Positions 42,175 through 42,293 of a stretch of 64,000 nucleotides of DNA are shown here, piece after piece. The stretch is from Escherichia coli (GTDB lineage Bacteria > Pseudomonadota > Gammaproteobacteria > Enterobacterales > Enterobacteriaceae), in NCBI RefSeq assembly GCF_051903065.1, contig NZ_CP178438.1. One strand, given 5' to 3'. How positions within the stretch are numbered: position 1 is the first letter of the stretch; each line of letters opens with the position of its first letter. The translations under genes were made by a program, and so were the position numbers. Below the pieces are notes generated by a model. It searched no databases. It worked only from the letters and a program-made list of their open reading frames with translations, and was not told where the DNA came from.

Positions 42175-42233
42175 AGTGCAGTATCTCCCGATTAAGGTTT
42201 GGTTTACGTCGTTTTATCTCGTTTTACTTGATT

Positions 42234-42276
42234 CAATATTTGATACATCGAGATACTACGATCCAATATTTGATAC
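42234..42276. promoter_or_regulatory. Putative immunity operator: two direct 13-mers CAATATTTGATAC spaced 30 bp
   Basis: Exact 13-bp repeats at 42234-42246 and 42264-42276 in the apl/cI divergent promoter region. Confidence 0.5.
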
Positions 42277-42293
42277 GTCAACAGGATTAAAAA

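Follow-up and report, generated by a model that had tools for sequence, protein, structure and literature searches.

A probable CI operator pair at the predicted early lytic promoter of a 186-like prophage of Escherichia coli

A 13-bp sequence, CAATATTTGATAC, occurs twice between an apl-like and a cI-like gene of a prophage in Escherichia coli (contig NZ_CP178438.1 of RefSeq assembly GCF_051903065.1, of which a stretch of 64,000 nucleotides was analysed; this whole stretch is referred to here as the window). Two direct repeats in such a place raise the question of whether they are operator sites and, if so, which protein would bind them and in what form. The original prediction, made from the letters alone, was that direct repeats three helical turns apart in the immunity region are a plausible arrangement for a repressor operator. 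We found no paper on the operators of the SopEPhi/Fels-2 group of prophages, and the CI immunity classes of this group have not been thoroughly studied (PMC3448106).

The repeat pair and the promoters around it

Reading of the sequence and a pattern search agree that CAATATTTGATAC is present exactly twice, at 42234-42246 and 42264-42276, both copies on the plus strand and 30 bp apart as first noted; every other match to it in the 64-kb window has at least two mismatches. A repeat search extends the repeat to 20 nt, with GATTCAATATTTGATACATC (42230-42249) and GATCCAATATTTGATACGTC (42260-42279) identical at 18 of 20 positions. Short repeats arise easily in AT-rich intergenic DNA, which speaks for a repeat that serves no function and arose by chance or by neutral local duplication. 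However, when the 119-bp intergenic region was shuffled 20,000 times, an exact direct repeat of at least 13 nt came up only once, and, as set out below, the spacing is fixed and the core selectively kept across 36 unique variants of this region. The repeat pair is real and non-random, and we regard a functionless origin as extremely improbable.

The interval 42175-42293 is the whole 119-bp gap from the start codon of the apl-like gene (42174, minus strand) to that of the cI-like gene (42294, plus strand). It belongs to a 33.5-kb P2/186-like prophage of the SopEPhi/SEN8 type, inserted in ssrA (the tmRNA gene, 12136-12498) and bounded by the 46-bp att repeat, two direct copies of the 3' end of ssrA (12454-12499 and 45935-45980); the integration site is that of SopEPhi and Fels-2. 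The nearest complete phages are Klebsiella phage Kp4845-2 (91%), Salmonella SEN8 (86%), Yersinia MLG42 and SopEPhi (both 80%) and Fels-2 (79%), while the same region is found in E. coli chromosomes at up to 99.7%.

The cI-like gene (42294-42926, plus strand) encodes a repressor of 210 aa that matches the Pfam families Phage_CI_repr (PF07022, E 5e-31) and Phage_CI_C (PF16452, E 6e-28), as well as the phage 186 CI structure 2FJR (E 1.5e-27) and a further 186 CI entry, 2FKD. Its identity to 186 CI is 31-34%. The repressor that adjoins the repeats is a member of the 186 CI family, with an HTH N-terminal domain and an oligomerisation C-terminal domain. On the other strand, the apl/cox-like gene (41932-42174, minus strand; 80 aa) is the first of the lytic operon, its homologues being annotated as Apl, excisionase or Rha-family regulator. 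The operon also holds a cII-like gene (41390-41899, minus strand; 169 aa) with a match to Phage_CP76, the 186 CII family (E 1e-43).

A promoter scan gave a single strong sigma-70 match in the gap, which agrees with the consensus at 9 of 12 positions and reads towards apl and cII. Its hexamers (42253-42281, minus strand; -35 TTGACG at 42281-42276, a spacer of 17 nt, -10 TAGTAT at 42258-42253) are as far from the cI start as those of the annotated 186 pR, and we refer to it as the predicted early lytic promoter, or pR analogue. The repeats bracket its -10, with one copy in the spacer and the other on the predicted start site. Expressed as operator candidates of 17 bp, the proximal copy, O_P (GATCCAATATTTGATAC, 42260-42276), occupies the spacer between the -10 and the -35 and overlaps the last base of the latter, while the distal copy, O_D (GATTCAATATTTGATAC, 42230-42246, with the dyad core TCAA-tat-TTGA at 42233-42243), covers approximately +1 to +17 of the predicted pR transcript. 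A GATAC between the two copies, at 42252-42256, is part of the pR -10 hexamer.

A candidate for the lysogenic promoter, the pL analogue, is found on the plus strand at 42156-42184 (-35 TTGAAA at 42156-42161, 17 nt, -10 CAGTAT at 42179-42184). At 8 of 12 matches it falls under the threshold of the promoter scan, and so is absent from its output, and it is by position only that we propose it as pL: its hexamers stand at the exact offsets of 186 pL, the -35 ending 13 nt inside apl and the -10 starting 5 nt beyond. This candidate is convergent with pR, the predicted start sites lying about 55 bp apart. The genes are divergent and the repeats do lie between them, as the original prediction described, but pL probably lies within the beginning of apl, so that the two promoters would face each other in the manner of 186. 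A perfect 8-bp inverted repeat in the same region, AGTATCTC at 42180-42187 and GAGATACT at 42250-42257 with 62 nt between its arms, is the -10 hexamers (plus CTC) of these face-to-face pL and pR.

Each copy includes TTGATA, a good plus-strand -35 hexamer, and the repeats might themselves be promoter elements, either duplicated -35 boxes for rightward transcription of cI or sequence that contributes to the strength of pR. The promoter scan lists a plus-strand TTGATA (42270) followed after 17 nt by AATGAT, and a second promoter, TTGATA (42240) with CAATAT 18 nt on, is also readable. The listed promoter, however, would start inside cI, and in many relatives the distal hexamer is TTGAAC or TTGAAT, with its last two positions off, while the 186 homologue uses the convergent pL at a conserved position. 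As to pR strength, promoter spacers are normally unconserved, yet the pR spacer is near-invariant. We consider a role as promoter elements to be highly unlikely. We also rejected a role for the repeats at the level of RNA, as folding gave the pL leader a z-score of -0.40 and the pR leader one of +1.17, and an Rfam search of the region returned no match.

Conservation of the repeats and the form of the site

We assembled 85 usable loci that share the N-terminus of the window CI, termed type A; the sources were phage records, genomes of E. coli and 80 contigs of IMG/VR. These reduce to 36 unique intergenic sequences, from phages of Escherichia, Salmonella, Klebsiella and Yersinia. The motif GAYYCAA-N3-TKGA stands 56 bp upstream of the cI ATG in all 85 type A loci and again at -26 in 84 of them, so that the 30-bp spacing is constant, and the intergenic gap is 119 bp in every locus. 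Conservation in related prophages, the lack of which would have counted against the original prediction, therefore extends to both copies at a fixed 30 bp in 84 of the 85 same-type loci.

Within the motif, conservation is uneven. Among the 36 unique sequences, the G-A-T, the C-A-A and the T-G-A of TTGA are invariant in O_D, while one sequence each departs at position four (T/C) and at the initial T of TTGA; the three central bases and the right flank, from TAC onward, vary in up to a third. O_P is near-invariant in the same 36 relatives, the sole common change being at the central A (in five). One relative, L090, carries at the distal site a perfect 7+7 palindrome of 17 bp, GATTCAATATTTGAATC. 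Selection keeps GATYCAA-NNN-TTGA, with its dyad TCAA/TTGA, and not the 13-mer as such. Since it is the dyad block that is kept, and drift affects what remains of the direct repeat, the best reading of each copy is as a dyad operator of its own. It is important to note that the dyad symmetry of the window copies is 4+4 bp only, which is not significant by itself; the dyad reading draws on the pattern of conservation and on homology, because symmetry of this extent is alone too weak.

A dyad in each copy bears directly on the P2-style alternative, in which the 13-bp units would be non-palindromic half-sites and one repressor dimer would bridge the 30 bp, and to which the original prediction amounts if taken at its word. 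The C repressors of P2, P2 Hy dis and WPhi bind non-palindromic direct repeats, the half-sites of which are 22-34 bp apart and, in P2 and WPhi, flank the -10 (PMC1904268). The window resembles these systems in having two direct repeats (8-13 bp, 22-34 bp from centre to centre in the P2 systems) that flank the -10, and face-to-face promoters (PMC1904268; PMC2995052). Its 30-bp spacing and the position of the repeats around the -10 thus fit the known half-site geometry, the 18/20 identity of the repeat runs past the dyad core, and the conserved pattern is asymmetric, the GAT being kept on the left only, where in most sequences it has no symmetric partner on the right. Against this, the repressor is a 186-type CI of 210 aa, unrelated in size and domains to the P2 C family proteins of about 100 aa, and the conserved unit of 14 bp, with two blocks approximately 9 bp apart, exceeds the contacts of one HTH. 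Furthermore, many relatives retain the dyad core but lack the TAC, which belongs to the direct repeat only, and clear palindromes are present in relatives, at the distal site of L090 and in the proximal, spacer slot of the type D loci described below. Whereas the P2-type repeats are non-palindromic, the window units each hold a dyad, and it is this part that evolution has kept. The 186 CI family, for its part, has been reported to bind inverted repeats (PMC1904268). We therefore judge a P2-style arrangement to be unlikely.

The reading that we prefer is that each copy is a separate operator for CI. The 14-bp unit, with its two blocks about 9 bp apart, fits two HTH domains in adjacent major grooves, and hence one dimer per copy: each copy of about 17 bp, GAT(T/C)CAA-NNN-TTGAnnn, would be bound by one CI dimer through its two HTH N-terminal domains. 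With centres 30 bp, or approximately three helical turns, apart, both dimers would lie on about the same face of the DNA.

The original prediction had also suggested a comparison with the operators of 186 pR. No obvious sequence is shared with these, and the nearest parallel in 186 is instead pB, where two 17-bp inverted-repeat CI operators, ATTCACAAAAAGTGAAT and ATTCACGAATTGAGAAT, lie 32 bp apart, flank the -10 and resemble a direct repeat. pB and the window have in common a repressor of the same family and an element of about 17 bp that occurs twice, some three turns apart (32 and 30 bp, respectively), and the 186 half-site ATTCAC resembles the ATTCAA of the window. They differ in the gap between half-sites, which is 5 bp in 186 (A-type operator, N5) but 3 bp in the window (N3), and in the promoter concerned, this being pB, for the late activator, in 186 and pR in the window. 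The 186 sites are experimental, while those of the window are predicted.

Covariation of the repeats with the repressor type

We compared type A with three other immunity types, namely the Fels-2 type (type B), a Klebsiella group (type C) and an IMG/VR group (type D), which together comprise a further 85 loci. The GAYYCAA-N3-TKGA motif is present in none of these 85. Identity to type A is 0.8-1.0 over apl, drops to 0.33 at the distal copy, remains low as far as about codon 38 of cI and recovers over the segment SKSTMANRYLRDSFPAEWVIQCALETG. In alignments of the window with L002, L006 and L172, the divergent segment, or "immunity cassette", spans approximately 42199-42407, running from the Apl-site region through the operators to about cI codon 38. 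It ends before the recognition-helix segment, which is near-identical in all types: as aligned, types A and B have the same SKSTMANRYLR, despite their different intergenic sequences, and C and D depart from it by one residue. If the types are heteroimmune, specificity must therefore sit in the divergent N-terminal 38 residues.

Types B, C and D are like the window in apl, in the promoter hexamers (the CGTCAA of the pR -35 is kept in all types) and in layout, and each has a type-specific element starting with GATC in the pR spacer. What differs, besides the first 38 or so CI residues, is the operator sequence and its spacing: against 30 bp in the window, type B has about 31 bp and type D 43 bp. 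Type D has a palindrome in the pR spacer slot, GATCAC-N5-GTGATC, that is 186-like, with a second copy 43 bp away, and in type B the -10 is flanked by CTTTTCAAA and CTTTTTATA at a spacing of 31 bp. In type C we identified no distal partner site. A type-specific pair of sites around the pR -10 can thus be recognised in types A, B and D.

Two side observations concern these elements. Just downstream of the pR -10, type B loci (L099-L167) carry an inverted repeat, GGTTTG-N11-CAAACC, both arms of which are altered in some variants (such as AAGTTTG...CAAAACTT). Either a dyad operator or a hairpin in the leader could account for it. The GATC with which the pR-spacer element starts (42260-42263 here) is present in all four immunity types, and at both ends of the element in type D. 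The prophage also encodes a Dam-like methylase (39495-40412, minus strand), the SopEPhi homologue of which carries an annotation of similarity to the adenine methylase of retron Ec67, and with a GATC at the operator edge it is conceivable that binding is sensitive to methylation.

Proteins other than CI have to be weighed at this point, the candidates being Apl and host IHF. The stretch 42199-42228 (plus strand), which separates the candidate pL from pR, is made up of three 10-bp units arranged head to tail, TTGGTTTACG, TCGTTTTATC and TCGTTTTACT, and these are kept in both type A and type B, whose apl is shared. The units are probable sites for Apl (excisionase/repressor) by analogy with 186, in which seven Apl sites with a spacing of 10-11 bp occupy the same place (186 record; PMC7498355), between pR and the convergent pL at the apl start codon (186 record). 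These candidate Apl sites abut the distal copy, and the 30 bp between the repeats fit a whole number of times into the 10-bp register of Apl. However, the adjoining units differ from the repeats in sequence, being of the form G(G/T)TTTAY, and the repeats change with the type of cI while apl is constant: an identical Apl protein, WP_000102105.1, occurs with the operators and cI of three types, A, B and C. As for IHF, the minus strand of each copy agrees with the core WATCAANNNNTTR at 8 of 9 positions; matches of this quality, however, occur about once per kb, and the T needed for ATCAA varies at the distal copy in 7 of the 36 relatives. That the repeats serve to bind Apl or IHF is, in our view, very unlikely.

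The repeats thus go with cI and not with apl. Because operators and cI adjoin, their association is in part one of linkage and co-inheritance; it is informative despite this, since the recombination joint falls inside the gap. Our conclusion is that the repeats are rather likely to be an operator pair for the prophage's own CI, one copy on either side of the pR -10. This idea is well supported, though indirectly, by the position at the promoter, by conservation at a fixed 30 bp and by the joint divergence of the repeats and the CI N-terminus. Points against it are the short dyad, the unpartnered GAT on the left, a half-site gap unlike that of the 186 A-type operator, the recognition-helix segment common to types A and B, a candidate pL under the scan threshold and, as described below, the failure of a search for an FR-like site. 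Of the repressor-operator arrangement originally proposed, the operator is supported, indirectly, by the promoter position and by the contrast between 84 of 85 type A loci and 0 of 85 others, whereas the idea that the direct repeats are half-sites is not, given the conserved dyad and the 186-type CI.

A predicted CI complex at pR and further candidate sites

How such a pair might work can be modelled on phage 186, the CI of which oligomerises through its C-terminal domain (PMC3675496). The two CI dimers would be held together, and so bind cooperatively, by the same oligomerising C-terminal domain of the 186-type repressor. CI on the copy in the spacer and -35, together with CI on the start-site copy, would shut RNA polymerase out of pR, and this occlusion would silence apl, cII and the replication genes. 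Freed from convergent transcription, the weak, face-to-face pL would go on making CI and Int, as in 186. The window shares the layout of the 186 switch, with int and cI on one strand, apl and cII on the other, and an operator, here a candidate one, in the spacer.

The two switches also differ. According to the experimentally annotated 186 GenBank record, three CI operators lie over 186 pR, with pR2 in the spacer; they are two turns apart, whereas the window has two clear copies three turns apart and a doubtful third at 24 bp. The linker of the window CI is 16 residues longer than that of 186 CI. The doubtful third site concerns the TGATAC half-site that the original prediction had placed near the cI start: the hexamer is present, at 42295-42300, but inside cI codons 1-3 and hence outside the gap, and 24 rather than 30 bp from the TGATAC of the second repeat. 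It is included in a possible weak site, GGATTAAAAAATGATAC (42284-42300), which spans the cI ribosome-binding site and start codon. GGATTAAAAAATGATAC agrees with O_D at 10 of 14 specified positions, and its centre is 24 bp from that of O_P, out of register. It stands in the slot of 186 pR3, with a left half that is variable among relatives and a right half that is coding.

186 has in addition single operators about 300 bp from pR, FL (inside cI) and FR (186 record; PMC3675496). A candidate for an FL-like operator is GGTCCAAACATTGAACC (42525-42541), inside cI, the core of which, CCAAACATTGA (CCAA-aca-TTGA), lies at 42528-42538, and the centre of which is 265 bp from that of O_P. Of 35 unique relatives, 33 preserve this core, while the residue encoded is P, S, T or A, always from an xCA codon; that the core is kept while the residue varies by the first codon base hints at selection on the DNA. 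By analogy, this third copy may be the counterpart of FL, and may loop to the complex at pR as FL does in 186. An FR-like site was sought in the apl-cII junction and the start of cII, where there are weak matches only (8-9 of 12 positions), none of them conserved; in this the window differs from 186.

Over the entire window, five sites agree with the idealised palindrome at 12 of 14 positions, against 0.83 expected in 64 kb, and of these two are the repeats and one is GGTCCAAACATTGAACC. The remaining 12/14 matches were set down to chance, that at 1667-1683 lying in host DNA outside the prophage, and that at 40930-40946 inside a conserved ORF, lacking the core and being present in other immunity types. 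A site at 34420-34436 (minus strand) that matches the proximal copy at 12 of 14 positions was rejected; it falls in the 3' end of a 342-aa ORF. In type D, an FL-like site that matches the type D operator is present in some loci but is not conserved, and we make no claim of covariation for it.

A separate observation concerns the region upstream of the ogr/B-like late-activator gene (13350-13417, minus strand), where a 10-bp palindrome, TCAATATTGA (13401-13410), occupies the slot of the first pB CI operator of 186. We did not use it as evidence for operator specificity, given its N2 spacing and its retention in other immunity types (SEN8, Fels-2 and Cartapus). It is either a CI site that is shared between types and differently spaced, or a site for another factor.

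The finding itself is of a further, probable CI operator pair of an already known sort, at the lytic promoter of a common prophage family, and the pair is otherwise as expected for a temperate-phage switch. It may have a wider bearing on how 186-type repressors recognise DNA. The CI recognition-helix segments of the Fels-2 group are identical or one residue apart (SKSTMANR-Y/M/N-LR), and the pR operators of the group differ in sequence, in half-site gap (N3 in the window; N5 in type D, as in 186) and in site spacing (30, about 31 and 43 bp). Should the types truly be heteroimmune, it is possible, although we hold it only tentatively and think it doubtful, that the N-terminal arm and first helices, and not the recognition helix, set the operator specificity and geometry of 186-type repressors, and that the CI oligomer takes spacings of two, three and four turns. 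Were this true, the types of the Fels-2 group would be a natural test set for the "wheel" model of 186. A relative with two operators three turns apart would in any event offer a simple comparison for this model, in which DNA is wrapped on the wheel.

Knowledge of the operator of each immunity type would allow one to predict which prophages exclude one another, to design virulent or de-repressed derivatives, and to reuse the repressor-operator pairs as orthogonal genetic parts. Prophages of the SopEPhi/Fels-2 type are common in E. coli, Salmonella, Klebsiella and Yersinia, and bring with them virulence and defence cargo. That of the window prophage includes a dCTP-deaminase defence gene: between int and attR, a 585-aa ORF (43955-45712, minus strand) carries a cytidine/dCMP deaminase domain at its C-terminus, and its match to the PADLOC dCTPase model (dCTP deaminase anti-phage defence) has an E-value of 2e-146. 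At the other end of the prophage, between attL and the ogr-like gene, a 160-aa ORF (12622-13104, plus strand) with no Pfam match gives weak PADLOC matches to PDC-S48 (2e-7) and to the SspE C-terminus (1e-3), and may be a second cargo or defence gene.
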